A stretch of DNA of 64,000 nt from an uncultured delta proteobacterium (GTDB lineage: Bacteria; Desulfobacterota; WTBG01): NCBI GenBank assembly GCA_963793865.1, contig CAWCBP010000011.1, positions 117,652 through 181,651 on the forward strand, written 5' to 3'. This document shows, in pieces, positions 8,845 to 37,515 of this stretch. Positions within the stretch are counted from its first letter, which is position 1. Every line of letters starts with the position of its first letter. The position numbers and the translations under genes are program-made. Under the pieces are notes generated by a model. The model was not told where the DNA came from, did no database searches, and worked only from the letters and a program-made list of their open reading frames with translations.

Positions 8845-10368
8845 TTATTCCGAGAGAGGGAAGGACACGCCGGGTGAGAGAAAACCGGTGGGGTCAATCA
8901 CCTGCTTGATTACCTTTGCCATGGCAAAGTGGGCCGGGCATTCGGTCCAGGTCCTCTTGTCCCGGCCGACGCCGAGTGGCGCCATGCCGATCTCCTGCAT
9001 CAGGCCGTCAAACTTGGCTTTAATGGCCCCGATGTAGGGGAGAAAATCCCTGCGTGCGTAATCCACCAGAAAGATGACCTCGCCCGCCGCGTTGGCATGG
9101 CCTCCCATGGACAGGTAGGTCTGGCCGCAGCTGGCGTAAAGTCGGAGTATGGGATGGGGGTGGTTGAGAAACACCGGGTTTTCCCTGCAGATCTGCTGAT
9201 AGGTTTTCATTCCCCGGTCCATGTAATCTTCAAGTTTTTCCAGAGAGTCGAACACACCACCCGAAACGAAAATGCCGCCGGAGTCGGACTGCCCGTTAAA
9301 GGTGCCGCAAATCTTCGGACTGTTGCACTGCTGCCAGCCTGCGGCGTTTTCCTCGTGCCCGTCAAGAATGGCCACCATCCACGGGGGCATCACCGTGCCT
9401 CCTCCTTCCTCGAGAATGCGGATGCATGCTTTCTGCTCAAACGCGACCTTGGCCGGAGTGCCCCTGAAAGACATGCCGATGAGATTAATGTCCTGGGTGG
9501 CCTTGACAAAATGGGCGCCTTCCTGCCAGTGCTTGCTTGAATACAGCGCATGTGTCCAGCATCCCGGCCCCATGACCGTGGCACCGCAGGCATAATCCTG
9601 CATCATCACGTTATACATGGCCTTCACCGCGCCGCTCAGGGTGGGAAAGGTAACCCAGAGGGACCTGACTTCCTGAGGGGTGGGGAAAAAGCGGAATTCC
9701 ATTTGGCTCACGATGCCGTATCCGCCATTGGAGAAAAAGGGCAGATAGGTGAGCGCCGGTCCCGGGCCGTGGGGCCAGCCCGGGCTTTTGGGGTGGGCCA
9801 TGGAACCGGTTCGTATTATTTCACCGTTTGCCAGTACCAGTTCCATGCCGGCAACGCAGTTAATGCCCATGCCGTCCTGATAACCCGCCATCTTGTTCTG
9901 GCCGGTAAACACCTGGTAGGGTACAAACAGGGATGTTCCCGGACTGCCGCCAAAGTAGGGCCTGTATCCAAGATCCATTTCCCGTATCAGCTGGCTTACC
10001 TGCAGGCCGGTAGCACCCGGTTCCGCCCTGACCACCATCCGTTCCCTGTCAACTGCAACCTTCTGCATGCGGCGGAAATCGAGGACAATGCCGGCATTGG
10101 GCTTGCCGGGTATGGATCCCACCAGCAGAACCGTACCGCCTCCCACCGGGTAAATGGGCAGATCATGCTTGCGGGCAACGTTGATGATGCCCTGCAGGTG
10201 CTTGGCCGACCCGGGATAGACGACAGCCACGGGGAGGTTTTCAGGATAGAGATTGCCCTGACCAAAATGGGTCATCACATCGGAGGCATGGTAATACCTG
10301 CTCAGGGCATCCGTGCGCACCCACTCTGAACCAACAACCTTTTTCAGTTTACTGATTACGTTCTTCAT
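8845..10368 (-). CDS. FAD-binding oxidoreductase (VAO/PCMH/GlcD family)
   Basis: PVAVVYPGS, PVGGGT, LVLANGEIIRTG, GPGP, IDPTGFLSPG; start MKNV overlaps the upstream stop (ATGA). Confidence 0.85.
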   Translation of the reverse strand: MKNVISKLKKVVGSEWVRTDALSRYYHASDVMTHFGQGNLYPENLPVAVVYPGSAKHLQGIINVARKHDLPIYPVGGGTVLLVGSIPGKPNAGIVLDFRRMQKVAVDRERMVVRAEPGATGLQVSQLIREMDLGYRPYFGGSPGTSLFVPYQVFTGQNKMAGYQDGMGINCVAGMELVLANGEIIRTGSMAHPKSPGWPHGPGPALTYLPFFSNGGYGIVSQMEFRFFPTPQEVRSLWVTFPTLSGAVKAMYNVMMQDYACGATVMGPGCWTHALYSSKHWQEGAHFVKATQDINLIGMSFRGTPAKVAFEQKACIRILEEGGGTVMPPWMVAILDGHEENAAGWQQCNSPKICGTFNGQSDSGGIFVSGGVFDSLEKLEDYMDRGMKTYQQICRENPVFLNHPHPILRLYASCGQTYLSMGGHANAAGEVIFLVDYARRDFLPYIGAIKAKFDGLMQEIGMAPLGVGRDKRTWTECPAHFAMAKVIKQVIDPTGFLSPGVSFPLSE

Positions 10369-11513
10369 CGAGCCACCGCCTTTCTCTTGTAACCGAATGC
10401 CTCTGCCATGAGGGATGTTAAATCGACCACGCTGAAGCCTTTGGGCTTGCTCGCTCCCAGGTTGATGTTGCAGAAGGGGCAGGCGGTAACCATGACCCGG
10501 GCACCTGTTGCCTGTGCCTCCTGCCAGCGGTTTGACGCGTATCGTTTGGCGAGCGAAGCATCCGTAAACAGCACACCCCCTCCTGCGCCGCAGCACAGCG
10601 AGTTGTGCCCGGAACGCCACATCTCTTTGAGGGTAAGTCCCAGACCGGCGATGACCTGGCGCGGGGCCATGTATTCCTTCGCGTAGCGTCCCAGGTGGCA
10701 GGGATCCTGGTAGGTAACCGGGGGCATTTTTAATTTTTTATGGGCCTTCTTTGCGATCATCTGGCTGTAGAGCCGGCTGATGGGGATGAATTCAACCCGG
10801 CTGTTGCTGCGTCTGAGCAGCACTGACAGGCTCTCCGGGTTGTAGCAGATGACCTGCCGTATCCCGAATTTTTCCAGGCGGGTGTCAATGTCCTCCATGC
10901 ACTCTTCAAGCAGCTCGCTGCAGCCGGCACTGAGAAGTGCCGTGTCAACAGGGGGAAGGGGATCGTTAATGAAGCACCCGATCCTCCTCCCGCTCTTCTG
11001 CAGTAAAAAGCCTATTTCCTGCAGCTTGGGGGTGTTAGCCATAATTGTTTTGTCGGCAAAGAGGATGGTTTCTATCCTGCTGTCTTCCGCGGGGTCGGCA
11101 ATGCCGTATGCTTTCAGGACATCGAGGTTATGGCCCGTGGCGGTGCTCAGGGATTGTGCCATCCTGATGAGGCTTTGCGGCTTCAACTCATCCGGTACCA
11201 TCCTGCGCAGCTCTTCCATGATGGTGATGGCCGGGGTGTGACGGTAACCGCGGCTGCACAGATCTTCGCAATAACCGCAGAGCGTGCATGAATAGAGGAA
11301 GTTGGCGAGCTCCTTGTCCCAGTTCAGGGCGCCCAGGGCAAGACCGCGGGCGATATACATCAATCCCGCCGGTTCGTAGGCACCGAGAAGCGTCATTCCG
11401 GAAGGGCATTGCAGTGAGAATGACGTGTCCGGAACTGTGTCCTGAGAAACCCCCCGGCAACTCCCGCATCGGTTGCAAGAAAGCGCTTTGTCCAGTAATT
11501 CTTCCCTGGTCAC
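10365..11513 (-). CDS. Fe-S-binding CCG-domain protein (GlcF/HdrD-like)
   Basis: CNRCGSC, CTLCGYCEDLC, YQDPCHLGR, SLCCGAGGG, TACPFC. Confidence 0.9.
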   Translation of the reverse strand: MTREELLDKALSCNRCGSCRGVSQDTVPDTSFSLQCPSGMTLLGAYEPAGLMYIARGLALGALNWDKELANFLYSCTLCGYCEDLCSRGYRHTPAITIMEELRRMVPDELKPQSLIRMAQSLSTATGHNLDVLKAYGIADPAEDSRIETILFADKTIMANTPKLQEIGFLLQKSGRRIGCFINDPLPPVDTALLSAGCSELLEECMEDIDTRLEKFGIRQVICYNPESLSVLLRRSNSRVEFIPISRLYSQMIAKKAHKKLKMPPVTYQDPCHLGRYAKEYMAPRQVIAGLGLTLKEMWRSGHNSLCCGAGGGVLFTDASLAKRYASNRWQEAQATGARVMVTACPFCNINLGASKPKGFSVVDLTSLMAEAFGYKRKAVAR

Positions 11514-11527
11514 GGTTTGTACCTCCT

Positions 11528-12811
11528 TTAAAGCCCCAGTTTGCCCGGGTTCATGATGTTGTTGGGGTCGACGGCTTTTTTGATGGAACGAAGCAGTTTA
11601 AAAGAAAGAGGATAGGCGGCAGCAACCTGCCTGGCAATCAGGGCTGATGGCCGCGGAAAGGTGACGCCTTCCTTTAACAGCTTGCCGCAGATGGTGCTGT
11701 ATTTCTTCCGGGACTCCCTTTCAGTTCCCTTGGGGTAGCGGAGGTCGGGCTGGTAATAAAAGCACCCGCCGGACTGGAGGGGCATGAGCAGCGCCCCCGA
11801 GTTTTTGGGGAACAGGCTTGAACACTTCTGAACCTGCGCGGCCGTGGCAACGGTAACAACGGGAACCCACTCGAGTTCCGCCTCCTGGTGGAGCGAGGGC
11901 CCGGTGGGATGGTCAATCTCGGACAGGATGGTATCTCCGGCATTCTTTATCCCTTTGAGACCCGGGGACAACTCACCTTTCAGATTCCTGGCAATGGCGG
12001 AGAGGTCGTTTTTCTTGTATGCGATTTCAGCCTTCTCAAAGCCGCGCAGACCCACCACCACCGTCCAGGCGGGAAGCTTTGCCGCACCGTCCAGGGCCAG
12101 CAGATCCCGAAGGTATGTGCTGTTTACCGCGAAGATTTCGTTGGGCTCTTCGGTGGCGGTAAAAAGCTGCATTGCCTTAAGCGCTGTATTGATGTTCGCA
12201 CATGGTAAAAAGAACACCTGGTTTTCCGGTGATGCCGTCTTCAGGGTCACTGCCGCTTCAGTGATGATGCCCAGCGTACCCTGGGCCTGGCAGTAAATGC
12301 GGGATACCATGGCAAGCGACGTACCCCAGGAGTACTTGTCAGGCCTGTTTTGTGACATGGCCATCTGCCCGGTGGCGAATGCTTCCCCGTCCGCCCTGAA
12401 GCCCTGCATGGTGAGCATTTCCCAGGGATGGTACTTCGTCCACCCGAAGAGGGGCATCATTTCCAGGTAGGTTGCCAGAACGGAAGCATGTCCGGGGACA
12501 TCAATGGCGGCAAGGGTGCGCCGCCCCTCAGCCGCGCATGCCTTTTCAAGCTGGCTGAAGGTTACGCCCGGCTGGATGACCGCGTTGCGGTTCCGGGCAT
12601 CAAAATATGTTATTTTATTGAGCCGGGAAAGGTCAACCGCCGTGGCGCCCTTTACCGAGGGCAGATGGGTGTCCTGCAGATTGGTCCCGGAGCTCACCGG
12701 TACAAGCGGCGTGCGGTCTCTGTTGGCCTTGAGAATAATTTCCCGGACTTCCCCCGGGCTGGTCGGGGTTACTGTCTGCTGCGGCTGATAATCGGAAAAG
12801 AACGTGGTCAT
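11528..12811 (-). CDS. FAD-binding oxidoreductase (VAO/GlcD family)
   Basis: VPVSSGT, VIQPGVTF, QGTLGIIT, VDPNNIMNPGKL; ATGA overlap with the upstream gene. Confidence 0.85.
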   Translation of the reverse strand: MTTFFSDYQPQQTVTPTSPGEVREIILKANRDRTPLVPVSSGTNLQDTHLPSVKGATAVDLSRLNKITYFDARNRNAVIQPGVTFSQLEKACAAEGRRTLAAIDVPGHASVLATYLEMMPLFGWTKYHPWEMLTMQGFRADGEAFATGQMAMSQNRPDKYSWGTSLAMVSRIYCQAQGTLGIITEAAVTLKTASPENQVFFLPCANINTALKAMQLFTATEEPNEIFAVNSTYLRDLLALDGAAKLPAWTVVVGLRGFEKAEIAYKKNDLSAIARNLKGELSPGLKGIKNAGDTILSEIDHPTGPSLHQEAELEWVPVVTVATAAQVQKCSSLFPKNSGALLMPLQSGGCFYYQPDLRYPKGTERESRKKYSTICGKLLKEGVTFPRPSALIARQVAAAYPLSFKLLRSIKKAVDPNNIMNPGKLGL

Positions 12812-13200
12812 CTGTTCGCACCTCCTTCCATGCATTCCTGAAGCATGACCAAAAAGCTGACCACCAGCGAGCCATTGTGATGGTCTTTGCCCATGCGTAT
12901 GTTAGCCTGGTCATTGTTCATCGCCACCAGAAGCGGAGGGCAGGTCCCGAGGAAAAGGCGGTTGAAGGCATCCTCAGTCATGGCCCATGAACAGAAGGGT
13001 TTTTTTGCCTCCCGCTGCGCCACGCTGATCTCTGATCCGTCCCAGCTAACCACCAGCGGCGTGTTATCACCCACCGTGAGACAGAGCAGGTCTCCGCGCA
13101 CGGTTGCCGGTAAGCCCGCGGCGTTGAGGCGCCTCAGCCGTTCTTCAAGCGCGGGGTCGGTTCGAAGTGTTGCTTCCCATTTTTCTCTGTTGATATTCAT
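12808..13200 (-). CDS. Small protein, possible SCP2 (sterol-carrier)-like fold
   Basis: 130 aa; KPFCSWAMTEDAFNRLFLG resembles the SCP2 PDxTxxxSxEDFxxLxxG segment; translationally coupled. Confidence 0.45.
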   Translation of the reverse strand: MNINREKWEATLRTDPALEERLRRLNAAGLPATVRGDLLCLTVGDNTPLVVSWDGSEISVAQREAKKPFCSWAMTEDAFNRLFLGTCPPLLVAMNNDQANIRMGKDHHNGSLVVSFLVMLQECMEGGANR

Positions 13201-13259: not shown

Positions 13260-14264
13260 TCAGGCCTTGCTCTTCCAGTTGAGGAATTTTCTGAAGTTGT
13301 CCCCCATCAGCTTGTACTTGAAATCCATGGAAAGAGGAAGGTTCATGATGTTATCGATCATCGGTTTATACACCGGCAGCGTGAGAGGGAAGTCCGTGCC
13401 GTAAAACACCTTGTCAGGCATGAAGAATTCGAGAAAGCGCAGGTGGTCCAGGTCCCAGTAATACTTGAATTGCATCAGCGTGGGATGGGGAACGGTAATG
13501 TCGGTGTACATGTTGTCAAACTTCATGACATTCCAGAGTCCCTGCATGGGGTTATTAAAAAGGCCGCAGTGCAGCTGCAGGATTTTCAGGTTGGGGAAAT
13601 CCATGGCCACATCATCGAGGTAGACAGGGTCCTGGTATTTGGCCCTGGTGCCCGGGAGTTCCTCCTGTCCGGTATGCACCTGGAGGTGCAGTCCCAGTTC
13701 CACCATTTTCTCGTAAGCAGGGTAGAGGTCGGGGTTGTTGGGATAGCCGGCGGTCGGGGTGTGAAACTTGCAGCCCGGGAATCCGCACTCATGGGCCGAT
13801 ATGACCATTTCCACCGCCGCCTGCTTCCCGTAACGGGCATGGACGCCGCCAACAGCGGTAAAGCGTCCGGGGAAGGCGTCGATGAAGTTCTTCTTCACAT
13901 ATTCATTGGGCACATACCACTTCCAGCCGTCCTTGTTGCCGGGGTAGGGGTCGGAGATGCCGTGGATGCATTGCAGGCACATGGCCTCAACATTGGCGCT
14001 GTCCATGAAGGCAATGAATGTTTCCGGGGTGAGGTTGGGGCACTCTTCGGGCTTGGTGATGATTTTGGTGGGGTTGGGATCACCGAGGAACGCCCGCGCG
14101 CCCATCAGGCTTCGGGAGCCCACCGTGTTGCCGGCCCACATGTCAAAACAGCCCGGCCGGCTCATAATATCCTTTTTCTCCAGTCCGGGATGGGCGTGAC
14201 TGTCGAAAAACTTAAAGGGCTTGGGAAGCATCATTTTTTCAATGGTTCCTTCCATTTCCGTCAT
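13260..14264 (-). CDS. Amidohydrolase-2 family metal-dependent hydrolase/decarboxylase
   Basis: DSHAH, KFH, QVHTG, LHCG, YTD, YGTDFP motifs. Confidence 0.9.
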   Translation of the reverse strand: MTEMEGTIEKMMLPKPFKFFDSHAHPGLEKKDIMSRPGCFDMWAGNTVGSRSLMGARAFLGDPNPTKIITKPEECPNLTPETFIAFMDSANVEAMCLQCIHGISDPYPGNKDGWKWYVPNEYVKKNFIDAFPGRFTAVGGVHARYGKQAAVEMVISAHECGFPGCKFHTPTAGYPNNPDLYPAYEKMVELGLHLQVHTGQEELPGTRAKYQDPVYLDDVAMDFPNLKILQLHCGLFNNPMQGLWNVMKFDNMYTDITVPHPTLMQFKYYWDLDHLRFLEFFMPDKVFYGTDFPLTLPVYKPMIDNIMNLPLSMDFKYKLMGDNFRKFLNWKSKA

Positions 14265-14327: not shown

Positions 14328-16019
14328 TTAAAGTACCTTGGTCATCTCTGCCAGCTGTTCAGGCGGCACCACGTTGGGCGTGGTGGCATAGGGCGGATTG
14401 GAAACGTTGTTGGGATCAAATTCCCGCTTCATGGCCTTGACCAGCAGATGCACGTTAAAGAACTGCGGTCCGAGCAGATCATACACGGGTCCGAGCAACA
14501 CCACCGTCGAAGCCGCGCTCTTGGTTTTTACCCATTCCTTGAGATTGCCCAGGAGGAAAGTGATTGCCTCGGATGCCTTCGCCGGTTCCTGTTCCGGCCA
14601 GAGGTCGGTGGTCATTAATGCGCCGTAGCCCTTTTCAGTGGGGCTGATCCAGCCGCCGTGAAAGCTGATGGGAAGCAGGTGGCTGCCCTCGCCCTTTGCC
14701 CGCCGCTCCCGCTGGATGCGGTTGGCCCGCAGGATTTCTTCGGCCACGGTGTCGATGGAGTCGAGGCAGGCGGTACCCTGGTGGAAGCAGTCGCTGGGAC
14801 GGCTCAGGCGCATGGAGTGGCCGACCCGGATCCAGTCGTTGGTGATGCGCATCCAGACCTTGTAACGCTCCCGGTCCATTGGATCCGGTGAGTTTTCAGA
14901 AAGGAAGCTGCCGCCCATTTTGTCCACGATATGCTTCAGGACCTTTTCTTCATAGTCAAGCTGCTCGACGCTGGTCAGGGCAGCCAGGGCGACAATGTTG
15001 TAGCCGTGGGGGAAGAAATCCTCGTTGGCGCCCTTGTGGAACTCCTCCTTGGTGCGCGCCGCCCAGGTCCACATGAACTGCTTGGCGTTGTGCTGAACCA
15101 CCATGGCCAGCTCGGCCCGCGCTATCTCGTAATGGAGATCGCACGACCAGCGGAGCTGCTTCTCTTCATTTTCAGGATAGGGCTTGATGGCCTTGGGGAA
15201 ATCGATCATATACCATCGCAGCTTGTCCTTGGGGAAGTGAGACTCCTTCAACAGGGCAGTGCCCGAGGTGGGAAAGGTTGAAGGACCCGGCCAGGGGAAA
15301 AGGCGGGTGGAAATCTTGGTGACCATGCCCATGCCGCCGGCGTGGCTGAACTGGGCGCCGCGCTGGAACCCGCGCAGGTCGGGACCGGGGCCGTCGTTCC
15401 ATATCCAGTCGTCGCTTCCTTCCTGGGCGATGGAGCCGCTTCGGAGAAGCTCGCCGTTGGGCAGAACCAGCTCGAAGGCCAGCAGCTGGTTGGCTCCCAG
15501 CGCGGCAAGCCAGGAGGTGCCGTAGGCGCCGTGCCATTGTATATTGGCAAGGGCTGATATTTGCGCTCCGGCAGGCGGCGTGGGTACGGTACATCCCACC
15601 TGCATTGCCTCGGCCTGGAGGGAGGCAAAGCTCACGTACGGCTCTATGACCGCGTACATATTGTTGGCATCAACCTTGAGTATCCTGTCCATGCGCTTGG
15701 GGTCGATGATGACCACCCCCTTGCCCATCATTGCCTGCCCGGGATTGGGGAAGGCGCTGTTGATCATGCCCGTTCCCCGGGGAATGAAAAAGAAATCATA
15801 GCGGTTGGCAAGCTTGATGATCGCCTGCACCTCCTCGGTTGACTGGGGCAGGACCACGCAGTCCGGCCGCATCTTGGTGCCGAGCTGCGATCGCTGCACG
15901 CAGCCGTCTGCGGTCCACTGGACACGCGAGTAAGACTGGCACATGACCGGATCGTTGGTCAGGTTTTCTTTGCCGACAACGTCCTGCAGGGCCCTATAGG
16001 CAATATCCGAAAACGACAT
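14328..16019 (-). CDS. FAD-binding oxidoreductase (VAO/p-cresol methylhydroxylase family)
   Basis: PDCVVLPQSTEEVQ, IPRGTG, LVLPNGELLRSG, GPGPDLRG, FDPNNVSNP; RBS AAGGAGG before MSFSD. Confidence 0.88.
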   Translation of the reverse strand: MSFSDIAYRALQDVVGKENLTNDPVMCQSYSRVQWTADGCVQRSQLGTKMRPDCVVLPQSTEEVQAIIKLANRYDFFFIPRGTGMINSAFPNPGQAMMGKGVVIIDPKRMDRILKVDANNMYAVIEPYVSFASLQAEAMQVGCTVPTPPAGAQISALANIQWHGAYGTSWLAALGANQLLAFELVLPNGELLRSGSIAQEGSDDWIWNDGPGPDLRGFQRGAQFSHAGGMGMVTKISTRLFPWPGPSTFPTSGTALLKESHFPKDKLRWYMIDFPKAIKPYPENEEKQLRWSCDLHYEIARAELAMVVQHNAKQFMWTWAARTKEEFHKGANEDFFPHGYNIVALAALTSVEQLDYEEKVLKHIVDKMGGSFLSENSPDPMDRERYKVWMRITNDWIRVGHSMRLSRPSDCFHQGTACLDSIDTVAEEILRANRIQRERRAKGEGSHLLPISFHGGWISPTEKGYGALMTTDLWPEQEPAKASEAITFLLGNLKEWVKTKSAASTVVLLGPVYDLLGPQFFNVHLLVKAMKREFDPNNVSNPPYATTPNVVPPEQLAEMTKVL

Positions 16020-17567: not shown

Positions 17568-17612
17568 GTTTTCCTCCGCCCAATTTCCAAAGATGTTGTA
17601 CTCCAATTAAAA

Positions 17613-17626
17613 ATGAGTGCACTCAT
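17613..17626. promoter_or_regulatory. Perfect palindrome ATGAGTGCACTCAT, candidate TetR operator
   Basis: Lies just downstream of a minus-strand TTGACA-N17-TTTTAT promoter; a 13/14 copy precedes the TetR gene. Confidence 0.75.
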
Positions 17627-17687
17627 ATAAAATCAAAGTTCTACCCCCCTGTCAAGCAAAAAATGTGCAGGGTTGATTATGTGGCGA

Positions 17688-19008
17688 TTAATCAGCCCGC
17701 TTGGCCAGAACGGTTGCTATTTTAGCCATGTCCGCCTGCTTAACCGTTTTACATTTTTCCTGCAATGCGGGCGAGAGGCCGGGCATGCTTAAAAAATGAT
17801 TCATGACCGCCTCGGTATAGTTGTAGACCCCCGCCTCCATTGCATCGGCGACTGCGGGGTATTGTTTTGTCAGGTTAAAGAGAAAATCTATCTCCTCCTG
17901 GGTGAAGAAACGCATCCAGACCACGCGCTTCACATAATCCGCCATGCGCTGGGGGTTTACATTCCACTCGAAGGTGGAACCCCACCAGGCGGTGTAGTCC
18001 TTGAATCCGCTTTTGCCCTTGAGCTCGTCGGCCATGCAGTGGCCGGCCATGTACCCGCAGCAGGTAGCGCCCTGGTACAGGCATTCGGCAAAAGCGGCTG
18101 CGTCACCCACCAGCAGGACGTTGCCGCGGTAGGGGACTTTGATGGGGGTGAAGATTTCAACAATGGCTCCGCTCTTTTCCACTATTTTCGCTTTTTTGAA
18201 CCATGACGCCAGGGGGCTTTTGTTCATGAAAAATTCGATGATGTCATACGCCATTTTGCCCGGCAGGGCGCCCGTGGTCTCAAATCGATAGGCGCCATTC
18301 CCCCGCGGGCTGGGGACTGCTATGATGGATCCGCGGGTGCCGATGTTGTTTTCGCCGGTGAAATACATGTCCCCGCGGTCGAGGGGACAGTCAACATCCG
18401 TTATCTCGTATTCGATGGTGGGGCCTTTGCCGAAGCACATGCGCTCCCGGTTGAAACCGAGGGTCCTGGCGATGCGGGAGGAAAGGCCGTCGGAGGCAAT
18501 CAGCTTTCTGCAGGTTTTGGTGGTGGTTTTGCCCCTGGTCCTCAGGGTCAGCTCAACCCCCCCGCTGATCTCACTGGCGCGCAGGAAGGTGGTGCCGGTC
18601 ATGAAGGAGACACCCAGCTTTTTTGCCCGCTTGTAGCGGTCGGAGAGCCAGGTAGTGGGATTGAAGAGATGGTAGAAGGGTTTCACACGGGAGGTGGCCT
18701 GAAAGTGGCTCCCGGAATTGGAAATGATATGGCTGTGGTGGATGCCTTCCATGAAGCCTGAATATTCAAGGGAAAAACCGCACATGCGTGTAAGTGATTT
18801 TGGTCTTGCCGTTCAAGGGCTCCAGTTTGACATTTTCACCGTTAAAATCCTGGTCATCCATGCAAAAACCGGAGGCGGATCTGACATTCACATCAAGCCG
18901 CGGTTTTCTGTCTATGCCGAGCACCTTGATGCCCTTTTCCTGGAGTTCAGCAGCCGCCATAAGCCCTGCCGGACCGCAGCCCGCAACAATCACATCATAA
19001 TCAAACAT
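17688..19008 (-). CDS. Geranylgeranyl reductase/FixC-family flavoprotein; frameshift near 18785
   Basis: YDVIVAGCGPAGL Rossmann motif, LIASDGLSSRIAR, VLLVGDAA; ORFs 18766..19038 and 17688..18785 join. Confidence 0.8.
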
Positions 19009-19124
19009 TATTGCTACCTCCTTCGTTGATTGACTCAAGAACTCCTGAAGATTGCACCTGCTTTATCACAGGTGTTTTTCCATATCACCATTATCCTTGC
19101 TTGTAAACAAAATATTTCCCTACC

Positions 19125-24153: not shown

Positions 24154-24154
24154 C

Positions 24155-29045: not shown

Positions 29046-31443
29046 TTAATTGATGACTTCATGTCGATTGCGGTAAAGTGCTTTCCTCTTAGTTTTCTCA
29101 TCCCCGCTGAGAAATCGTGGTTTGAAGAGCAGCACCAGCACCGGAACCATGAATATCGCCCCCAGGCAATTGAGAAAGAGGATGACTGCCAGCATCAGTC
29201 CCATCTGCGCCTGGAACTTGAAGGCGGACAGATCCAGACCAATAGCCCGGCAACCAGTGTGCCCGCGATGACATAATCGATTTTCCATAGGTCTGAATGG
29301 TGCGGGTCATGATCGTGTTAAGCGAGCTGGATGGATCACGTTTTTTTTCCTCGGTCCATCCGGGCGATGCAGTAAATCCCGTAGTCCACCCCCATGCCGA
29401 TTCCTGCGGCCGACACCGGCAGGGTTGAAACCGAAAGGCCGATACTGCGTTATGGCCATATAGGCAAACGCCATGAAGTTGGAAAGCGCCAGGGGAAGGG
29501 TCAGGACAAGGCCTGCCGTGATGGACATGAAGTTAAGCGCGCAGAACAGGAATACGCCAAGAGGGCAATAGATAAGGGTCTGCACCTGCTTGGAAGCGAC
29601 CATTTCATTGATGGCGGCCTCGGTACCGATAACCCCGCCTGCAAGACTGTATTGAAAGCCCTCCGGCAAATTGGAATATTCCTTGATATACTGCTTGGCG
29701 GTGGCGATGGCGCGATCGATGGTGGGGCCGGTTTTGTCCTTGTAGTATACAACCACATTAGTCTGCATGATTTTGGGATCGATAAACTTGTTCATGTCCC
29801 CCGGCTCAAATGCGAAAAGCAGTCCTACCAGATTGGCGCTGGCAGCGGCGGGGTCATCCGCCAGGCCGATCCACTTGGGATCATCTTCGTGATATTTCTG
29901 GGGCATAATCATGAGCGGGGCGACGATGTTCTGAAAACCGGCAGCCCCGGAGTTTTTCATCATGTACTCGGAAAAGTTTTTAACATCCTCCATCACCCGG
30001 GGATTGGTCAGGGATCGCTGCTTATCTCCTTTAACCACAACGAAAAGAGGATTGATCAACGGCAGGTTCTGGTTGATGCGCACGCTGTCCTGATTATAGC
30101 GGGAACTGGGATAGAGCAGGTTTGAGCCGACCTGGGCATCGCCGATAATCAGCTTTCCAGACCAGTAGTAGGAAAATCCAAGTATGATCAGTATGATGAT
30201 GGATACGGTGTAAAGCCCCTTCTTCGAAATGAGCCAGGGGCCCAGCCAGTCGGCAAAGCGGTTGGCAAATCCCTCGCGCCGCTCATCGATGAGCCGTTCC
30301 CGTTCCATCTGCTCAACGAATTTGGGCGATATGGGGACATAGCTTAAAAGAACCGGCGTCAGAATGAGACCGACGATGACGGTTATGATGGACCAGAAGG
30401 CGCCGGCGATGGCGATGTTTTTTAGAACCGGTATGGGGGCAAGGGCGACAATGGCAATGCCGAAGGCATCAGTGATAATGCTGGTCAGTCCGGCCATGAA
30501 CATGTTTTCGATGATCACGCGTATGCCGGCCAGGTTGTCCTTGGTCTTGGCATATTCTTCGTAATAGCGGTTGTACAGCTGATGCGAATGGCGGAAGGCC
30601 ATGAGCGAGATAAGAAAGGGCATGACAAAAATGAGCGGGTCGAGATTGTAGCGCATGATGCCCATGAATCCCAGTCCCCAGATGCCGGAAACGATACCGG
30701 CGAGGGGTACAATGATCGTGGCCCAGATGGAACGGTAGGCGAAAAAGAGCAGGATGGGAGATTACAATTGCCGTGCCCAGCATGATCAGGTTGATCATTC
30801 TGATCATGCTCGCCACCACCCCCAGGTGCATGGGATGCCCGACGATGGAAACGGTGGTGTTGCTGTCTTCGGTCTTCTTGCGCATCTCCTCAAGCTGTTT
30901 ATACACAGCAGTATAATTCAAGTCTCCTTCAAAGAAATCCGCAAAGATGAGTGATTTCTTTGAGTCCAGGGAAACGTAGAAACCGTAGTAGGCCTCATTG
31001 GAGTAAATGGCATTCTTCAGGGTTTCCATTCCCTTGTCGTCTTTGGGAACCTCGGGGTACATCAGGGCCACCGCCTCCAGGCCCCAGGAGGTAATCTGGG
31101 TGTTTTTAAGCTTGCGTGAGGCAATGGAGACTATCTTATAGCGGTCAATACCCGGCAGGCCTTCCAGCTCGTTGGTGAGGTAGCGGATCTTTTCCAGCGT
31201 CTCCCGGTTGAAGATGGTGCCGTCCTTGACGGACACCATAATGACCAGAAAGTTGGCCCCGCCGAAGACCTCGCGAAATTCATTGTGGATTTTTACGTAG
31301 GGGTGAGTCTGGGGAAGCAGGTCATTAAAGTTGGTGGCGACGGTGAGATGCCGGCACTGGTAGCCGAAGTAGACGGTAATGACGGTGATGACGACCAGTA
31401 CCAGCAACCGTCTGTTAATAATAAAATCCGCGAGTTTCTTCAT
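29046..31443 (-). CDS. RND/MMPL-family transporter permease; several frameshifts
   Basis: LLPQTHPYV, FGGAN, TSIITDAFG, GGVIG, FQAQMGLML; pieces 30469..31443, 29307..30665 and 29046..29288. Confidence 0.85.
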
Positions 31444-31559: not shown

Positions 31560-32012
31560 TTACTTTACAATTATTTTTCCCTTAATATCCGGTGGCTCAG
31601 CAGGTATGGCTGCAAGTTTGCGCGGTTCCCGTTTTACCACGTATTCAAACTCTCCCGCTTCAGTAAAGCACAGGCTTGCAACGGTACCCCGGAAAATCTT
31701 TTCCGATACATAGGTGCCACGATTATCAACCACAAAGCGCACCGGGCTCCCGCAGGCCAGGGTGACCTGTTTATCGGTGAACTCAATCTCCGCGAGGCTC
31801 TTGGATTCGTTGATCCAGATCACGGTGGTGCCGGGCTGGACGGTGAGCTGCTGCGGCTCAACCCCCCCCTTCTCGTAGAGACGAACGATTTTGTGCTGCA
31901 ATTCCGGTGTTGCTTCCGTATCCACCCCATATGCCGTTTGCACGGAGATAAAACTGATGATGCAGAAGAGCGCACACAGAGCCGTCACCATGTTCCCATT
32001 TGCTTTTAGCAT
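31560..32012 (-). CDS. Exported cupredoxin-fold-like protein
   Basis: Signal peptide; PQQLTVQPGTTVIWIN, FTEAGEFEY, KGKIIVK; no type-1 Cu His/Cys/Met ligand set. Confidence 0.6.
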   Translation of the reverse strand: MLKANGNMVTALCALFCIISFISVQTAYGVDTEATPELQHKIVRLYEKGGVEPQQLTVQPGTTVIWINESKSLAEIEFTDKQVTLACGSPVRFVVDNRGTYVSEKIFRGTVASLCFTEAGEFEYVVKREPRKLAAIPAEPPDIKGKIIVK

Positions 32013-32093: not shown

Positions 32094-33155
32094 CTATTGT
32101 TCAATTAAAAGGGGAATGCCGGATAACATCTTCCAGCTCCCCCCGCCGTCTTCGGTTTTGATGATTGTGCCTCGGGAACCGACTGCCCAGCCGGTTGTCG
32201 CGTCGGAAAAATCCATGTCCCGCAGCCAAAACTTGGTGTTGGTGGCATCCTCAGGCCGCTCCCAGGTCAGGCCACCGTCCTTAGAATGGATGTAAACCCC
32301 TTTCTGTCCGACCACCCACACTGTGCTGCTGTGTGCGGCGATTTTGTAAAAAGTCAGTCTTTCCTGTTCCAGGGGGTTCTTGACTTTCTTCCAGGTGACG
32401 CCGCCGTCGTTCGTGGCAATGGTGACGCTGTCCATGCCTGATGCCCAGCCATGGAGCGTATCAGTGAAGCAGATGCTGTACAGGGAAGGGGTCGGGGTTT
32501 CCCATTGCGTCTCATCCACCTTGCAGATTATATCCTGGCACATTTGCAGCTCCCAGGTGGAGCCTGAGTTCTGCGTGTGATAAATCAGCCCGTACTCACC
32601 CGCGACCCATGCGTTCTGCCGGTCTACACAAAAGATGTCATTATAAATTCTGTCCTCACCCGATCCCTGGGAAACCCAATTTGCGCCGCCGTCGGCAGTG
32701 TGCAGGATGGTGCCGAATTCTCCCACCGCCCAGCCGCAGGTTCATCGGCAAAGTCAATCCCGAAAAGCTGGCGGCTGGTGCCGCTTGACTGCGGTTGCCA
32801 GGTTCTTCCCGCCGTCCTTTGTATGCAGGATGGTCCCTCGGGCACCCGCTATCCAGCCGGTCTGAGGATTGACAAACGAGACATCATAGAGAGGAGCAGT
32901 TACGCCGCCATTCTGGATTTCCCACTTTGCACCCCCGCCGCAGCTGTGCACGATTATGGCGTTGAATCCGACGACCCAGGCATTGTTGGAATCAGGGGCG
33001 CTGACGGCGAAAAGATTTTCACCGGTAACCATGGGGAAGGGAGCTTGTTGAGCGACGGGCTGTTTTTCAGGCCCGCATCCGGCGAAGAGGATGACAAGGA
33101 TGGTTATAATTGAATGGAATGAAAGCAGGTTGTCTTTTAAGCGCCAGGGATTCAC
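32094..33155 (-). CDS. YCF48/BNR (Asp-box) beta-propeller lipoprotein; frameshifted near 32730-32790
   Basis: LFAGC lipobox; repeated TxDGGxxW and GWxxGxxG motifs. Confidence 0.85.
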
Positions 33156-33371: not shown

Positions 33372-34181
33372 CTAGTCCAGGCCGAACATCACCGTGCGGA
33401 CGTATTCCTTCTGCTTCTCGGGCCCGAGGAGGGTTTTGAAGACATTTACCGCGGGACCGCCCTTGGCAATGAGGGTGTCGACATACCATTCCATGCCCGC
33501 CTTGACCTTTGCGCTCTCTTCGGCGCCCAGCGGCTGCGCATTCTTCGCCATATCGAGATAGGTGTTGAGATATGAGGTGTAGACATCAAAGAGCAGATCG
33601 TCGCGGGTGCGGTCCGCGCGGCTGTGGATGCTCACATCCCGCACCGCTTCTTCCGCCCACTCCATGGATACTTCCATTTTTTCCAGGGTGCCCTCCGCCG
33701 GCTTCAGGGAGCGCATCTTCGCGTAGCCCGCTTCAAGGTTGTCGTCCCTGATGCCTGCCGGGTCAATAAGCTCGATGACAAAGACCCTTTTGCCTCCCAT
33801 GAAAATGATATCCACCGAGAGCATGGGCAGATTATAATTATAGTTGGGGAGGATGAGCAGGGTATACATCTTCATGAAGATCATGAGCGAGGCGTCGAGG
33901 TTGTTGATGCGCTTGAACTTATCAGTCTGCCAGGCCTCAATGGCGAATCTGAGCAGCTTCAGCCCCTTCCAGGGATGAACGATCCGGTACTCCTCCCTGA
34001 TGGGATAGGGGGCGAGCGGAAGGGCCTGTGCCAGGACATCCTCGGTGTAGCGGTCATACTTCTCGTACATACGCTGCCCCTCGCTGCGCGCCTTGATGAT
34101 GAGAGGGGCGGCGACGAGCGCGGCCAGGATGACGATTCCCGCCAGGGTGTAAGCGAGGTATTTTATTATTTTAAGCGCCAT
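33372..34181 (-). CDS. Ferredoxin-dependent bilin reductase (PcyA/PebA/PebB/RCCR)-like protein with N-terminal membrane anchor
   Basis: AWQTDKFKRI, LILPNYNYNLPMLSVDII (spacing of PcyA FPxxxYxLPxFGxD105), YLNTYL, GPAVNVFKTLLGPEKQKEYVRTVMF. Confidence 0.7.
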   Translation of the reverse strand: MALKIIKYLAYTLAGIVILAALVAAPLIIKARSEGQRMYEKYDRYTEDVLAQALPLAPYPIREEYRIVHPWKGLKLLRFAIEAWQTDKFKRINNLDASLMIFMKMYTLLILPNYNYNLPMLSVDIIFMGGKRVFVIELIDPAGIRDDNLEAGYAKMRSLKPAEGTLEKMEVSMEWAEEAVRDVSIHSRADRTRDDLLFDVYTSYLNTYLDMAKNAQPLGAEESAKVKAGMEWYVDTLIAKGGPAVNVFKTLLGPEKQKEYVRTVMFGLD

Positions 34182-34229: not shown

Positions 34230-35360
34230 TCATTGCATGCGGGCAATGATTTCCTGAATGGTCTGCCGCTGCTCTCCCTCGATCTTTCTTCCTTCCGCCC
34301 AGAGCAGTTCCTCCGCCTTGGCAACATCCGCCTCCGCGCCTTTTCTGGCGTCGGGCTTTTCGTAGGAGCGGAATGATATGTGCACGTTCCCGGGGTCCTC
34401 GGTGAGCACCGCGGCGACCACATGAAGGGTATGCTCCGTGCCGTCATATGATTTCACCGCATGATAATAAATATTAAAGGGGGATTTTTTCTGTTCCTGG
34501 AGGTTGATGCCCTGCTGCTGCGCCCAGGTCTCGAGGAGCGAAATTGCATTTTCCATGGTGCTCCTGATGCGTGAGCGGGTATAAAAGATCCGGTCCGTGC
34601 TGTGGTGTTCATTGTAGGGCTTGGGCTTGAATTTTGCTTTTGAAGGGTCGGCCAGCGATCCCGGCTGGAGGGATGTCCAGTATCCCCGGTACTGTTCCAC
34701 GTCCTCCCGCATCGGGAGGCCAAGAATAGTGGTCCTGATTTCGTTGGCAAAGACCTCCACGCGCTCCACCATGAGCGATTCCCAGATATCCAGCCCCTGC
34801 CAGGGAGCGCCTTCCTTTGCCAGCTTGCCCAGGAGCCAGGTAAATAAGGTATCCTTGGTGTTCATCTTAGTCAGCACCTGACGGCCGCCGAATCCCCCGA
34901 TCACCACCGGCTTAACCGCGGGGTATTTTTCCATGATGTCGGAAAGGTAATTCCGCCCGGCGATGAGGTGGGGCGTGCCTCCGGGGGTCTTGAGAATCTG
35001 GGTCTCGTCGTTGTCACCGCAGGTAAGAAAATAGGCCACCTCTTTTCTGGAAAGCTCGTCCTGGTTCGCCTCCACAAATTTGTAGATTTCCGGCGCGGGT
35101 TTTTCATTCCTGATCAAACTGCCGATGATCACGTAGTCGTAGGGCTTGATGGTGATAATCTGGCTGAGCGGCTTCACATCCAGCAGGTTTTCGGGACCGA
35201 TAAGCTGCTTGATCCAGTAGGCAACCTCGACGGTTGAACCGTAGATGGAGCTGTATACCAGCAGTCCCTTCTTGCCTTCGGCAGGTGCTGCCGGGGGGGT
35301 GATGAGTGCTGCCAGCATGAGCAGCACAACGATGTAAAAGGTTCTGGTCTTGAGTTTCAT
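34230..35360 (-). CDS. Exported flavodoxin-domain protein (HemG/Flavodoxin_5-like) with extra C-terminal domain
   Basis: Sec signal; LLVYSSIYGSTVEVA FMN loop, YDYVIIGS, KEVAYFLT, FGG. Confidence 0.75.
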   Translation of the reverse strand: MKLKTRTFYIVVLLMLAALITPPAAPAEGKKGLLVYSSIYGSTVEVAYWIKQLIGPENLLDVKPLSQIITIKPYDYVIIGSLIRNEKPAPEIYKFVEANQDELSRKEVAYFLTCGDNDETQILKTPGGTPHLIAGRNYLSDIMEKYPAVKPVVIGGFGGRQVLTKMNTKDTLFTWLLGKLAKEGAPWQGLDIWESLMVERVEVFANEIRTTILGLPMREDVEQYRGYWTSLQPGSLADPSKAKFKPKPYNEHHSTDRIFYTRSRIRSTMENAISLLETWAQQQGINLQEQKKSPFNIYYHAVKSYDGTEHTLHVVAAVLTEDPGNVHISFRSYEKPDARKGAEADVAKAEELLWAEGRKIEGEQRQTIQEIIARMQ

Positions 35361-35402: not shown

Positions 35403-36768
35403 TCAGATGGTAAAGTTGCAGTGAAAGCCCGACCTGATGGTGTTCCGCAGGACCACGTGCGCGGGGATAGGAGCTGAATTCCTCGATTTTTTTCAGCAGC
35501 TCCGGCCTTTGCTTCTTGAATGGTGGGGATGACTTTGGCCATGGCAACTGGCCCATGAGCGCCGGAATCTCGTAGGGGTCCAGCACGGTGGGAAGCGTCT
35601 CGTTGATGATGCTGAAGAGATAGTCAATTTCGCCGTCCGAACAGAGCATGGGCATGTACAGGTTCTTGAGGAACACATTGTAATCCAGCTTGTCGAGGTA
35701 GGCGGATTTCCACCACGTGAGATAGGGCGCCATGCCCGCCGCGTTGTACTGCTTCTCCTGCATGGCAAAGACCACGGTATTCCCGGCCTTCCAGCCGCTC
35801 ATCACCGCGCCGGTCATCTCGGCTTCCTGGCACCAGCCCGCATCACCCACAAAGAGCACATTGTCCTTATAGGGGTAAAACAGGGGGGCATACATGTTGC
35901 CGGTGCAGCCGCACCGGCGAATCTTGCGGGCCTTTTTGAACCAGGGGGCAAACCTGCTCCGCTGCGTCAATTCATCAAAGACGCCTTCATGGTCCGCCTG
36001 CATGTTAACATTTGATATCATCACCAGCCACACGTCTTCCCCTTCATGGTCCCAGGCGCGCGGACAGATGAACCCCATCATGGGCGGATCACCGCTTTTG
36101 AACAGCGGCTGATGGAGCGCGTAGGGATGTTCCAGGGTGAGGTTGGTCATCTCGTACCCGATGGAGGTGACCGTGGCGTAAAGCCGGCGGCCCCTGTTCA
36201 TGCCCATGCTGCGGGCCATCCGTGACTGTCGCCCGTCGGCGGCGATGACGAACATGCCTTTGAACGCCCGGCCTCCGGCCGTGTAGACCACGACCCCTTG
36301 GCCGTCCTTTGCCGCACGGATGACGTTCTGCCCGGTGAACAGCTTAACCCCGAGGCGCCTGCATTCTTCGGTCAAACCGGCCAGGAGGCGGCCCTTGTGA
36401 TATACCGCGCTGGCCCGGCCCGCCCGACCTTTTTGGACATTGGCCGTATAGTTGCCGAAGGTGATGCTTTCCCCGCCGGGTGAGTAAATTTCCCAGGCGA
36501 AAAAATCCTTGGTGGGGCCGTCGTATTTCAGGCTGAACCCGTGATGGGGAAAGCCCAGCACGCCGCTTTGTTCGTTGTGGGTAAGACGTTCCCCCATGTA
36601 GTTCCCGGTGAGGGTGACCAGCATCATGCCGCACATCCTCAGGATGTCCGAGGGGCTGTCCTTCCGCTCGAGCAGGGCAACCGAAAGCCCGTTTTCCGCC
36701 GCCATCTTGGCCGCGGTCAGTCCGGCAGGTCCGGCACCGACTACGACGAGATCATAGGTCTTGCTCAT
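35403..36768 (-). CDS. Geranylgeranyl reductase/FixC-family flavoprotein; C-terminal frameshifts
   Basis: YDLVVVGAGPAGL, IAADGRQSRMAR, VLFVGDAG; paralog of 17688..19008; likely true end ...GFHCNFTI*. Confidence 0.82.
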
Positions 36769-36805: not shown

Positions 36806-37435
36806 TTACGCGGCCGGCCCCTCCGGTTGTATCATGCCTTCCAATACGAGATCAAGCCGCTGAAAAAGATCCTCAGATGTCATGCTATAGCTTTTTTTAA
36901 TCAGGCAGTCAATGATAAAAAGGGTGAAAATCCCTTCCAGCATGGTTGCCAGCTTGAGCGCCGGCACATCGCTTCGCATCTGGCCCTGCTGCTGCCCCTT
37001 GTCTATGATCAGGGAGAGGGACTGCCTGAAATCATCAAAAAAGAGGCCGTTGTACTCTTTGTTGTTGAAGCTTGATAAATTCTTAAGCAGTATGGCCCGG
37101 GTAATTTCCTGGTTCTGGGCGGCAATGCGGGCGGTGGCGGCAAATACCTTGTTGATCTTTGTTTTCATCGGTGCGTCGGTGGAGACAATTTCCTGGCACT
37201 TTTTCCTCAGGAAGGGAATCTTTTTCTTGAAAATCTCGACCAGCACATCCTCCTTGCGGGGGAAGTAATTGAAGAAGGTGCTCTGGGCGATGTCGATCTT
37301 CTCGGTAATATCTTCGACGGAGGTATTCTCAAACCCCTTCTCATTGAAGAGCTTTTGTGCCACCGTGAAGATGGCATCCCGCGTGGCCTGCTTCTTCCGT
37401 TCTCTCCGCCTGACCGGTGTGCGCTTGCCGAACAT
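36806..37435 (-). CDS. TetR/AcrR-family transcriptional repressor
   Basis: RRERKKQATRDAI..A..LFNEKGFENTSVEDITEKIDIAQSTFFNYFPRKED HTH. Confidence 0.95.
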   Translation of the reverse strand: MFGKRTPVRRRERKKQATRDAIFTVAQKLFNEKGFENTSVEDITEKIDIAQSTFFNYFPRKEDVLVEIFKKKIPFLRKKCQEIVSTDAPMKTKINKVFAATARIAAQNQEITRAILLKNLSSFNNKEYNGLFFDDFRQSLSLIIDKGQQQGQMRSDVPALKLATMLEGIFTLFIIDCLIKKSYSMTSEDLFQRLDLVLEGMIQPEGPAA

Positions 37436-37501
37436 TGGTTTCTTTTCAGGTGATGTGGTTATGACGTGGGAATAAACTGCCAATAAGCTGCTCAAACATT
37501 T

Positions 37502-37515
37502 ATAAGTGCACTCAT
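37502..37515. promoter_or_regulatory. Candidate TetR autoregulatory operator
   Basis: ATAAGTGCACTCAT (13/14 to the 17613 palindrome), 19 nt downstream of a minus-strand TTGACA. Confidence 0.75.

Follow-up and report, generated by a model that had tools for sequence, protein, structure and literature searches.

A TetR-linked gene island with bilin-reductase and HemF folds in an uncultured Thermodesulfobacteriota genome: a candidate system for uptake and reduction of a lipophilic pigment

Introduction

What would a non-phototrophic bacterium of a sulfate-reducer-type lineage do with an island of genes whose products include homologues of bilin reductases and of HemF? The question is raised by a 64,000-nucleotide (nt) stretch of contig CAWCBP010000011.1 (assembly GCA_963793865.1), hereafter the window, from an uncultured member of the Thermodesulfobacteriota. 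Textbooks treat ferredoxin-dependent bilin reductases (FDBRs) and HemF as enzymes of phototrophs and aerobes, and few pigments are buried in anoxic sediments and soils in larger amounts than the derivatives of chlorophyll and heme. A reading made from the letters of the window alone (the sequence-only reading) had proposed that the island imports and dismantles a tetrapyrrole-like compound. Our literature search returned no report of FDBR homologues in Desulfobacterota and none of an enzymatic anaerobic route of chlorophyll breakdown.

Here we follow up that proposal with profile, structure and gene-order comparisons. Our tentative reading, which we hold to be possible rather than probable, is that the island encodes TetR-controlled uptake and stepwise, flavodoxin-driven reduction and breakdown of a lipophilic tetrapyrrole-derived pigment. 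Judged by gene order among relatives, the island is made of three modules and is not one conserved unit.

Results

Gene content of the island

The host is an uncultured Thermodesulfobacteriota metagenome-assembled genome (MAG) of 3.85 Mb on 14 contigs, 98.6% complete. The open reading frame (ORF) listing of the window holds 23 co-oriented minus-strand genes between 8845 and 37564 (Table 1). In the order of transcription they encode a TetR regulator, the geranylgeranyl-reductase-type (GGR) protein GGR1, a HemG-type flavodoxin, the FDBR homologue, a BNR/Ycf48-like lipoprotein and a cupredoxin-like protein; then an HAE3-type RND transporter, DUF1302 and DUF1329 proteins, a CN_hydrolase, a corrinoid protein, a URO-D-family protein, an MtrH/MtgA-like methyltransferase and a RACo activase; and lastly a HemF-fold protein, GGR2, the VAO-type flavoproteins VAO1 and VAO2, an Amidohydro_2 protein, h130, VAO3, a CCG/Fer4 protein and VAO4.

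Pfam assigned at least one family at E ≤ 0.001 to 21 of the 27 ORFs submitted, including TetR_N, BNR/Ycf48-like (two ORFs), DUF1302, DUF1329, CN_hydrolase, FAD_binding_4 (four ORFs), Amidohydro_2 and CCG plus Fer4_8. The six unmatched ORFs were two RND pieces, GGR2, h130, h101 and h248; NCBIfam assigned the RND pieces to HAE3 and GGR2 to TIGR02032, and h101 and h248 look like wrong-frame artefacts. The inventory given by the sequence-only reading was therefore borne out: some 23 co-oriented genes do follow a tetR gene, and the transport module, the corrinoid set, the four VAO-type flavoproteins, the CCG protein, the amidohydrolase and the nitrilase-fold protein were all recovered with Pfam or NCBIfam. 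Its remark that core heme-biosynthesis genes are missing also proved right, as none was found by Pfam among the island and flank proteins. The island contains no ferredoxin gene.

The FDBR homologue and its flavodoxin neighbour

The bilin-reductase assignment, first made from the sequence alone, passed the hidden Markov model tests. The protein scores 77 bits against Fe_bilin_red (PF05996; cut-off 31), and its closest solved relative is GtPEBB, the cryptophyte PebB (6qwq; E 5.7e-10 with a single sequence, 6.4e-13 with a profile), followed by PcyA and PebA; the alignment with GtPEBB and PcyA spans about 200 residues. D124 pairs with the Asp of the LGLDLV motif of 6qwq and is invariant in 13/13 aligned orthologues. 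We take this central beta-sheet Asp to be the proton donor in FDBRs. A query of a protein atlas returned only FDBR-type and unnamed clusters (scores 0.90-0.92, recognition below the mark) and added nothing beyond Pfam. The orthologue group is small: out of 1.84 billion representative proteins, thresholds of E ≤ 1e-30, 1e-10 and 0.001 gave 23, 165 and 378 clusters, respectively, and the host genome itself holds 14 PF05996 matches, of which 11 lie above the cut-off.

Compared with GtPEBB (6qwq/6qx6), PcyA, PebA and pre-PcyA, the homologue belongs to the same Pfam family and keeps the central Asp, but it differs from canonical FDBRs in its Gly-Gly in place of the distal Asp, in having a flavodoxin rather than a ferredoxin as neighbour, and in a transmembrane helix. 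All orthologues carry this N-terminal hydrophobic helix, which canonical FDBRs lack, and the topology of the protein is ambiguous. The host also departs from other FDBR hosts in being a non-phototrophic anaerobe with 11 family members. In plants, RCCR reduces a chlorophyll breakdown product and shares the FDBR fold, but it acts after an oxygen-dependent ring opening and was not matched in sequence searches with the FDBR homologue. Clusters encoding pre-PcyA carry heme oxygenase, V4R and globin (BBAG) genes according to the available parts of PMC10151467 and PMC13446030, whereas none of these three neighbours the gene studied here.

Two further members of the family were seen in passing. In a Spirochaetes MAG (L065 8126-10768) an FDBR orthologue, 36% identical, stands divergent, with genes for a SOUL heme-binding protein (168 bits) and an esterase next to it. 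At G000:C11:113920-114657 (L072 13921-14658), some 3 kb ahead of the window, a weak ORF of the FDBR family (27.3 bits, short of the cut-off) directly follows an O-methyltransferase gene (Methyltransf_2).

The neighbouring flavodoxin reaches 65.5 bits against Flavodoxin_5 (cut-off 27) and 31 bits against the HemG equivalog PRK11104, whose cut-off of 142 is not reached, and it measures 376 aa, where HemG is a single domain of about 180 aa. Of the earlier HemG-type label, then, the Flavodoxin_5 domain stands, while the equivalog score and the architecture do not agree with it. The structure model (pLDDT 78) has an N-terminal helix at residues 6-19, a flavodoxin domain at 30-215 and a well-predicted C-terminal domain at 248-361 that matches the KA1 membrane-binding domain (Z 11.3/11.1; root-mean-square deviation 2.1-2.2 over 92-95 residues). 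The N-termini of the orthologues, inspected by eye, finish with AXA-like sites, and the flavodoxin may be secreted via a cleavable Sec-type signal. A PDB sequence search with the flavodoxin gave no match at E ≤ 10.

It is from gene adjacency that we infer a donor-acceptor pairing of the flavodoxin with the FDBR homologue. A precedent is HmuF/FldH, which has the flavodoxin fold, binds heme and reduces anaerobilin (PMC10404700, available in part). In the HmuW/HmuF (ChuW-type) system, as in our proposal, the O2-free reduction of a tetrapyrrole goes together with a flavodoxin-fold protein, but there is no detectable sequence similarity to HmuF/FldH, the island has no radical SAM ring-opening enzyme, and the flavodoxin carries its KA1-like module where FldH has a helical cap. 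Kinship with HmuF/FldH is not claimed, since the flavodoxin domain ties between the heme-binding FldH 8g64 (Z 14.6) and a plain flavodoxin (Z 15.0).

A conserved core and two lineage-restricted modules

The core, or module 1, comprises the BNR/RND/DUF1302/DUF1329 transport genes, GGR1, the HemG-type flavodoxin and the membrane-anchored FDBR homologue, and it is kept across uncultured Thermodesulfobacteriota; the close relatives are all uncultured MAGs. Linkage was counted over 36 loci in genome contigs, 35 of them with an FDBR orthologue at 35% identity or more. Around that orthologue, the flavodoxin gene lay within 2.5 kb in 27/35 loci, GGR1 within 4.5 kb in 19/35, RND/DUF1302/DUF1329 within 10 kb in 17/35 and tetR within 5 kb in 8/35, the misses being partly due to short contigs.

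Module 2, with HemF, GGR2, VAO1, VAO2, Amidohydro_2, h130, VAO3, CCG and VAO4, was found only in the family of the window (f1). The block was seen in three genomes (G003, G009 and G008), and in G008 it comes directly after the FDBR gene with no genes between. Module 3, the corrinoid block with CN_hydrolase, was found only within the genus of the window, in G003 (L012, L031). The sequence-only reading had asked whether the bilin-reductase, HemF, GGR and DUF1302/1329 genes stay together across Desulfobacterota. Those that do are FDBR, flavodoxin, GGR1 and RND-DUF1302-DUF1329; the HemF gene is seldom near them, and the notion of a single conserved unit is not supported.

FDBR orthologues were present in 31/41 genomes searched, and HemF orthologues likewise in 31/41, with an identical spread over families (f1 10/10, f2 0/8, f3 1/1, f4 4/4, f5 0/1, f6 15/16), which is a pattern and not a test, as kin genomes are not independent. 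In three loci of the sister family f6 (L013, L029 and L030) the HemF orthologue stands at the end of a ValRS-NadC-CoaX-YggT-DivIVA(-DUF167) block. Because a gene for a CCG-domain protein adjoins HemF in two of these loci, it is suggested that the two proteins operate as a pair.

Near-identical DNA, whole or in part, was found in 20 runs from 13 studies, covering freshwater, soil, sediment and wetland metagenomes (0.25-0.48 of sampled 31-mers). Contigs from the metatranscriptome library X18 were at least 90% alike on parts of GGR2, HemF, MtrH, FDBR and TetR (8 pieces of 243-458 nt listed; some depth in 24/30 bins), but were not counted as expression, since assembled contigs are no proof of transcription and libraries of this kind may contain DNA.

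A putative operator at two promoters

Modules 1 and 2 are tied together by the same 17-nt putative operator at the tetR and VAO1 promoters. Upstream of tetR, TTGACA is followed after 16 nt by TATATGAGTGCACTTAT, and upstream of VAO1 it is followed after 20 nt by TATATGAGTGCACTCAT, giving a common 17-mer TATATGAGTGCACT[T/C]AT behind TTGACA in both places. Allowing up to three mismatches, the 17-mer had four matches in the window, which are these two sites on both strands, against 0.13 expected, and 0/100 shuffles reached four. Genome-wide, a 16-mer with at most one mismatch matched only the tetR and VAO1 sites, and both sites are kept in G003. The palindrome near tetR that the sequence-only reading had pointed out exists. 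The likely tetR start is the Met at 37435, with the part of the ORF upstream of it overlapping the promoter. Through the putative operator, one TetR regulon would span the core operon and the VAO operon.

The 17-mer scan of the window revealed no operator copy before the corrinoid block. Consensus scans of 17000-36999 showed no excess of promoters (11 vs 12.1 in shuffles) or of terminators (17 vs 22.3 in shuffles).

The HemF-fold protein and the tetrapyrrole context of the genome

The HemF assignment withstood both profile and structure searches. The protein scores 37.9 bits against Coprogen_oxidas (PF01218; cut-off 31.8), though only 54 bits against the NCBIfam equivalog PRK05330, whose cut-off is 297. 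Its model (pLDDT 88.9) matched HemF structures in Foldseek at TM 0.72-0.79 (query-normalised) and E of about 1e-13. The matches that came next, at TM 0.44-0.60, were all to FDBR or RCCR chains (RCCR at TM 0.49-0.60), and two of them were to PcyA-bearing complexes. As modelled, the FDBR and HemF folds of the island are related, and every solved match listed at E ≤ 0.001 handles tetrapyrroles. Relative to solved HemFs (8t7w, 3ejo and 2aex) the fold and the Pfam family are the same, and the Asp of GGGFDLTP is kept within YYDIYP.

Judged by its lineage, the host is probably a strict anaerobe. The genome has ALAD and five PF01218 matches, all above the cut-off, but no ferrochelatase above cut-off was found genome-wide, nor a canonical UroD to make the HemF substrate; its PF01208 matches are the methyltransferase of the island (71.6 bits) and a partial match of 44 bits. 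The HemF- and HemG-like genes are thus not part of ordinary heme synthesis.

Paralogues of HemF and FDBR stand in three further contexts in the genome. One contains PNPOx-like, HemF and AOR genes with an FDBR gene, a second AOR gene, a GGR-like protein gene and a 2-oxoacid:ferredoxin oxidoreductase nearby; another has two HemF genes with Amidohydro_2 and a nitroreductase. The last combines a nitrogenase-like pair bearing a protochlorophyllide-reductase C-terminal domain with two FDBR paralogues, a B12-radical-SAM gene and genes of the SAM cycle. The DPOR-like pair beside FDBR paralogues and the SOUL protein beside the Spirochaete orthologue point the same way, favouring a tetrapyrrole. At the last locus (G000:C14:238000-257999; L071) the pair is of NB type, one member having the PCP_red domain, and the neighbours are DUF169, MarR, a P-type ATPase, the two FDBR paralogues, a B12-binding radical SAM protein, SAM synthetase and SAH hydrolase.

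Transport proteins, flavoproteins and the corrinoid set

The four transport components, BNR, RND, DUF1302 and DUF1329, are all adjacent. The same four-protein set makes up clusters of Pseudomonas and Castellaniella (AmeABCD), as far as the partial sources for these describe them, but in the island pigment-fold reductases are coupled to it, in line or divergently. GGR1 matched PDB entries over the FAD Rossmann stretch only (3oz2), which is uninformative on its substrate. VAO1 and VAO2 matched D-lactate dehydrogenases, p-cresol methylhydroxylase and eugenol and vanillyl-alcohol oxidases, mostly over the FAD domain (E 1e-12 to 1e-19 for the latter three), and the amidohydrolase gave a weak match to ACMSD-type decarboxylases.

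Four components stand together in the corrinoid block: methyltransferase I (URO-D, 71.6 bits), the corrinoid protein (B12-binding, 95 bits), an MtrH-type methyltransferase II (MtrH, 222 bits) and the RACo activase (160 and 154 bits). The MtrH protein is MtgA-like, at 390 bits against an NCBIfam cut-off of 550. Methyltransferase I has no solved relative at E ≤ 0.001 in a PDB sequence search and reaches just 27.7 bits with the MtaA/CmuA model. The sequence-only reading had counted the URO-D member among its tetrapyrrole folds; by its gene neighbours, it is instead the putative methyltransferase of a four-part corrinoid system and provides no tetrapyrrole evidence. The layout is that of Methermicoccus MtoABCD and Moorella MtvABC, to judge from the available part of PMC8630106; the differences are a methyltransferase I lacking a solved relative and a block that sits inside a lipophile-handling island.

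Frame breaks, coordinates and flanks

Frame breaks in the window split or extend GGR1, GGR2 and RND, and probably also BNR and RACo, with CN_hydrolase a possible further case: the GGR1 ORF continues into the flavodoxin gene, GGR2 is without its N-terminus, and BNR, RND and RACo are fragmented. In the short-read MAG L032, of the same genus and with proteins 85-92% identical, GGR1 (453 aa) and BNR (349 aa) are single ORFs, as is RND (at least 752 aa, with an open end). When contigs from one RNA-library run and three DNA runs are compared with the window, single-base differences appear at 35468, 30759, 29325-29444, 22834 and 18783, and applying these differences yields a GGR1 of 454 aa, an RND protein of 780 aa, a GGR2 of 449 aa and a UroD-family protein of 441 aa. 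As independent contigs differ by single bases exactly at the breaks and the relative is intact, the breaks are most likely assembly errors in the form of 1-nt indels. Decay specific to the strain is less likely, and true pseudogenes are countered by the intact short-read relative together with the matching 1-nt differences in four runs.

Table 1 Coordinates of the island features in the window
Feature	Position	Strand	Remarks
Promoter P1 and putative TetR operator	37498..37541	-	TTGACA 37536-37541; 17-mer TATATGAGTGCACTTAT 37502-37518; imperfect palindrome 37498-37519
TetR-family regulator	36806..37435	-	Pfam TetR_N, 45.9 bits
GGR1, geranylgeranyl-reductase-type FAD protein	35404..36768	-	window ORF extends to 35104 past a 1-nt frame break near 35468
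HemG-type (Flavodoxin_5) flavodoxin	34230..35360	-	N-terminal signal/anchor helix; C-terminal KA1-like domain
FDBR-family protein	33372..34181	-	N-terminal transmembrane helix; D124 kept; distal Asp replaced by Gly-Gly
BNR/Ycf48-like lipoprotein	32094..33155	-	two ORFs in window
Small exported cupredoxin-like protein (weak match)	31560..32012	-	not in relatives L031, L032
HAE3-type RND transporter	29100..31443	-	several 1-nt indels in window
DUF1302 protein	27411..28928	-	Pfam
DUF1329/LolA-like protein	26136..27389	-	Pfam
Carbon-nitrogen hydrolase (nitrilase-fold)	25098..25991	-	Pfam CN_hydrolase
Corrinoid (B12-binding) protein	24155..24799	-	Pfam B12-binding plus B12-binding_2
URO-D-family protein, read as methyltransferase I	22741..24153	-	Pfam; ORF ends uncertain
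MtrH/MtgA-like methylcorrinoid:pterin methyltransferase	21909..22811	-	Pfam, NCBIfam
RACo-type corrinoid reductive activase	20355..21431	-	middle part only; N- and C-terminal parts appear frame-shifted
HemF-fold protein without the HemF His/Asn/Arg motif	19239..19994	-	Pfam, NCBIfam, structure model
GGR2, second GGR-type flavoprotein	17688..19038	-	NCBIfam; frame break at 18783
Promoter P2 and second putative operator copy	17613..17653	-	TATATGAGTGCACTCAT 17613-17629; TTGACA 17648-17653
VAO-type flavoprotein 1	16080..17606	-	Pfam, NCBIfam, PDB search
VAO-type flavoprotein 2	14328..16019	-	Pfam, NCBIfam, PDB search
Amidohydrolase_2 protein	13260..14264	-	Pfam, PDB search
h130, 130-aa protein, weak SCP2-like match	12808..13200	-	E 0.0052, below cut-off; conserved in L012, L023, L024
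VAO-type flavoprotein 3	11528..12835	-	Pfam, NCBIfam
CCG-domain Fe-S protein	10365..11513	-	Pfam, NCBIfam
VAO-type flavoprotein 4	8845..10368	-	Pfam, NCBIfam; likely start Met at 10368

The island is flanked on one side by an aldehyde dehydrogenase and a sigma-54 activator and on the other by a ParA/CbiA ATPase, PanE and M16 peptidases. The former pair lies at 4620-8720, the PAS/sigma-54 activator gene on the minus strand and the aldehyde dehydrogenase gene on the plus strand, convergent with VAO4, and keeps the same position in G003 (L012). Since tungsten AOR genes accompany the FDBR/HemF paralogues elsewhere in the genome, aldehyde chemistry may be part of the pathway.

Rfam gave no match at gathering scores over 8000-38500, and no repeats of 30 nt or more were found within 17600-37600. 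Two short palindromic intergenic elements occur at 31469-31527 and about 19124-19201 (for example GGTAGGAGCG...CGCTCCTACC). The summed contig depth over them was 10- to 20-fold above the surroundings in four runs of four, with many loose ends and inverted joints between both sites, and they look like repetitive extragenic palindromic (REP) or miniature inverted-repeat transposable element (MITE)-like repeats common to other genomes. Further along the window, an oxaloacetate decarboxylase beta-subunit ORF (54484-55278) spans profile positions 3-190 of 349, possibly another assembly frame break, and adjoining genes at 58147-60765 encode a rhodanese that bears a thrombospondin type 3 repeat and a protein in which the Lcl C-terminal domain occurs twice; Lcl_C proteins are also encoded near the HemF/FDBR loci of two relatives (L022 and L028).

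Discussion

The claim that the island imports and dismantles a tetrapyrrole is upheld in part: the FDBR and HemF folds, the core transport genes and the genome context agree with it, whereas the URO-D member, the GGR profile cut-offs, the catalytic motifs and the idea of a single unit do not. A lipophilic substrate would be consistent with the hydrophobic N-termini of the flavodoxin and FDBR proteins, the KA1-like domain and the weak SCP2 match of h130, and the likeliest candidate would be a bilin or a compound that arises when chlorophyll or heme is broken down.

In the pathway we propose, the BNR lipoprotein, the HAE3 RND pump, DUF1302 and DUF1329 would take the oily substrate through the envelope. 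The HemG-type flavodoxin would pass single electrons, at the membrane, to the anchored FDBR homologue, much as ferredoxin does with canonical FDBRs, and the latter would reduce a conjugated C=C bond, with the GGR-type flavoproteins saturating further double bonds. The HemF-fold protein may bind the reduced macrocycle or a bilin-like intermediate, and its action is proposed to be independent of O2 because the oxidase motif is gone. Side-chain dehydrogenation or hydroxylation and the disposal of electrons could fall to the four VAO-type flavoproteins and the CCG Fe-S protein, and the cleavage of C-N or C-C bonds to the amidohydrolase and the nitrilase-fold enzyme, while in this genus alone the corrinoid methyltransferase system would remove methyl groups. 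Ligand-bound TetR would leave both promoters.

Several observations weigh against a tetrapyrrole as the substrate. The distal Asp of the PebB/PebS/HY2 type, presumably catalytic, is lost: EKDPAR of 6qwq (chain residue D221) aligns with KGGPAV, and G241 and G242 are invariant in 13/13 orthologues. In the HemF homologue, HPxNPxVPTSHANVR of solved HemFs has become FPSNPCVPLTMGVYE, RRGRY has become RQRAEW and GGRTES has become FGAPAES, so that the Arg residues of the last two are missing; its orthologues show motif changes of the same pattern. We take these motifs to serve carboxylate binding and catalysis, and several such positions therefore appear to be gone. GGR1 (72.8 bits) and GGR2 (54.9 bits) both fall below the TIGR02032 cut-off of 158.8. 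Within the island, the only part of the genome searched for them, there is neither a heme oxygenase nor an anaerobic heme-opening radical SAM enzyme. The HemF gene lies within 10 kb of FDBR in just 2/35 loci, and its place at the end of the coaX-yggT-divIVA block in three f6 loci, beside housekeeping genes, hints at an endogenous role. Given the apparent cleavable signal of the flavodoxin and the ambiguous topology of the FDBR protein, the supposed partners could be in different compartments. The reversed-pattern control of the genome-wide operator search also gave one match. In one relative (L019) a UbiD-family decarboxylase gene immediately precedes the FDBR gene, and the GGR, SCP2-like, DUF1302/DUF1329 and VAO proteins would fit an isoprenoid, a sterol or an alkylphenol equally well.

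HemG-type flavodoxins work with quinones, and the same regulon and reductive logic might serve a lipophile other than a tetrapyrrole, as the sequence-only reading had itself allowed; it could be ubiquinone, menaquinone, a carotenoid, a tocopherol-like alkylphenol, or a sterol or hopanoid. The FDBR and HemF folds would then have been recruited as binding scaffolds for a flat hydrophobic molecule. The loss of catalytic motifs in both homologues speaks for this, as do the GGR-type reductases, the UbiD neighbour, the SCP2-like h130, the FAD-domain matches of VAO1 and VAO2 to enzymes of phenolic substrates such as p-cresol and eugenol, a corrinoid set that would suit the methoxy groups of ubiquinone, and the link of DUF1302/DUF1329/BNR/RND clusters with the handling of fatty acids, alcohols and monoterpenes in partly available sources. 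We nevertheless regard it as somewhat unlikely, given that the solved HemF- and FDBR-fold matches all handle tetrapyrroles, that the central FDBR Asp is invariant, and that a DPOR-like pair and a SOUL protein accompany members of the family elsewhere. The island might also be a mosaic of separate units in which the corrinoid set, with or without the VAO, CCG and amidohydrolase genes, degrades methoxylated lignin-derived aromatics and the core is unrelated. The restricted distribution of modules 2 and 3, the gaps of 145 and 316 nt around the corrinoid block, the inclusion of aromatic-acid decarboxylases such as ACMSD among Amidohydro_2 relatives and the likeness to the Mto/Mtv O-demethylases (PMC8630106, available in part) agree with such a mosaic, but the VAO module is linked with the core by the operator that tetR and VAO1 share at their promoters, and in G008 the HemF/VAO module directly follows FDBR. 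We judge it distinctly unlikely, and it is confined to the corrinoid block, as no operator copy was found before that block.

An endogenous, constitutive role, in which the proteins tailor a tetrapyrrole, quinone or membrane lipid of the cell itself and the transporter exports or places the product, would account for the matching spread of FDBR and HemF orthologues, for the housekeeping neighbours of HemF in f6 and for a core module beside ValRS and NadC in G024, and HAE3-type RND pumps include exporters such as the hopanoid-associated HpnN (a weak match). It seems to us very improbable, however, for a TetR repressor with an operator over its promoter is typical of inducible catabolism or efflux, the many paralogues per genome suit a diversity of substrates better than a single cofactor, and the genome is without a classic pathway to feed HemF.

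Returning to the uptake and reduction of a tetrapyrrole-derived pigment, the larger claim that the island is the first genetically defined O2-free route by which bacteria of sediments and soils take up and dismantle chlorophyll, heme or bilin pigments is in our estimation unlikely, and the accompanying notion that the HemF-fold enzyme has exchanged O2 for CCG/VAO-type electron acceptors is about as doubtful. What is of consequence for this lineage is that both the FDBR and HemF folds have multiplied (11 and 5 genes) in non-phototrophic bacteria of the sulfate-reducer type without the classic heme pathway, and that one FDBR homologue is linked with a flavodoxin, a lipophile transporter and a TetR repressor, a possible first genetic handle on O2-free pigment processing. 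The TetR with its defined 17-nt putative operator, the proposed enzyme-donor pair and the small, delimited orthologue group offer handles for experiment. Should the substrate not be a tetrapyrrole, the island would still reveal a new chemistry in two folds that have until now been met in tetrapyrrole enzymes alone.

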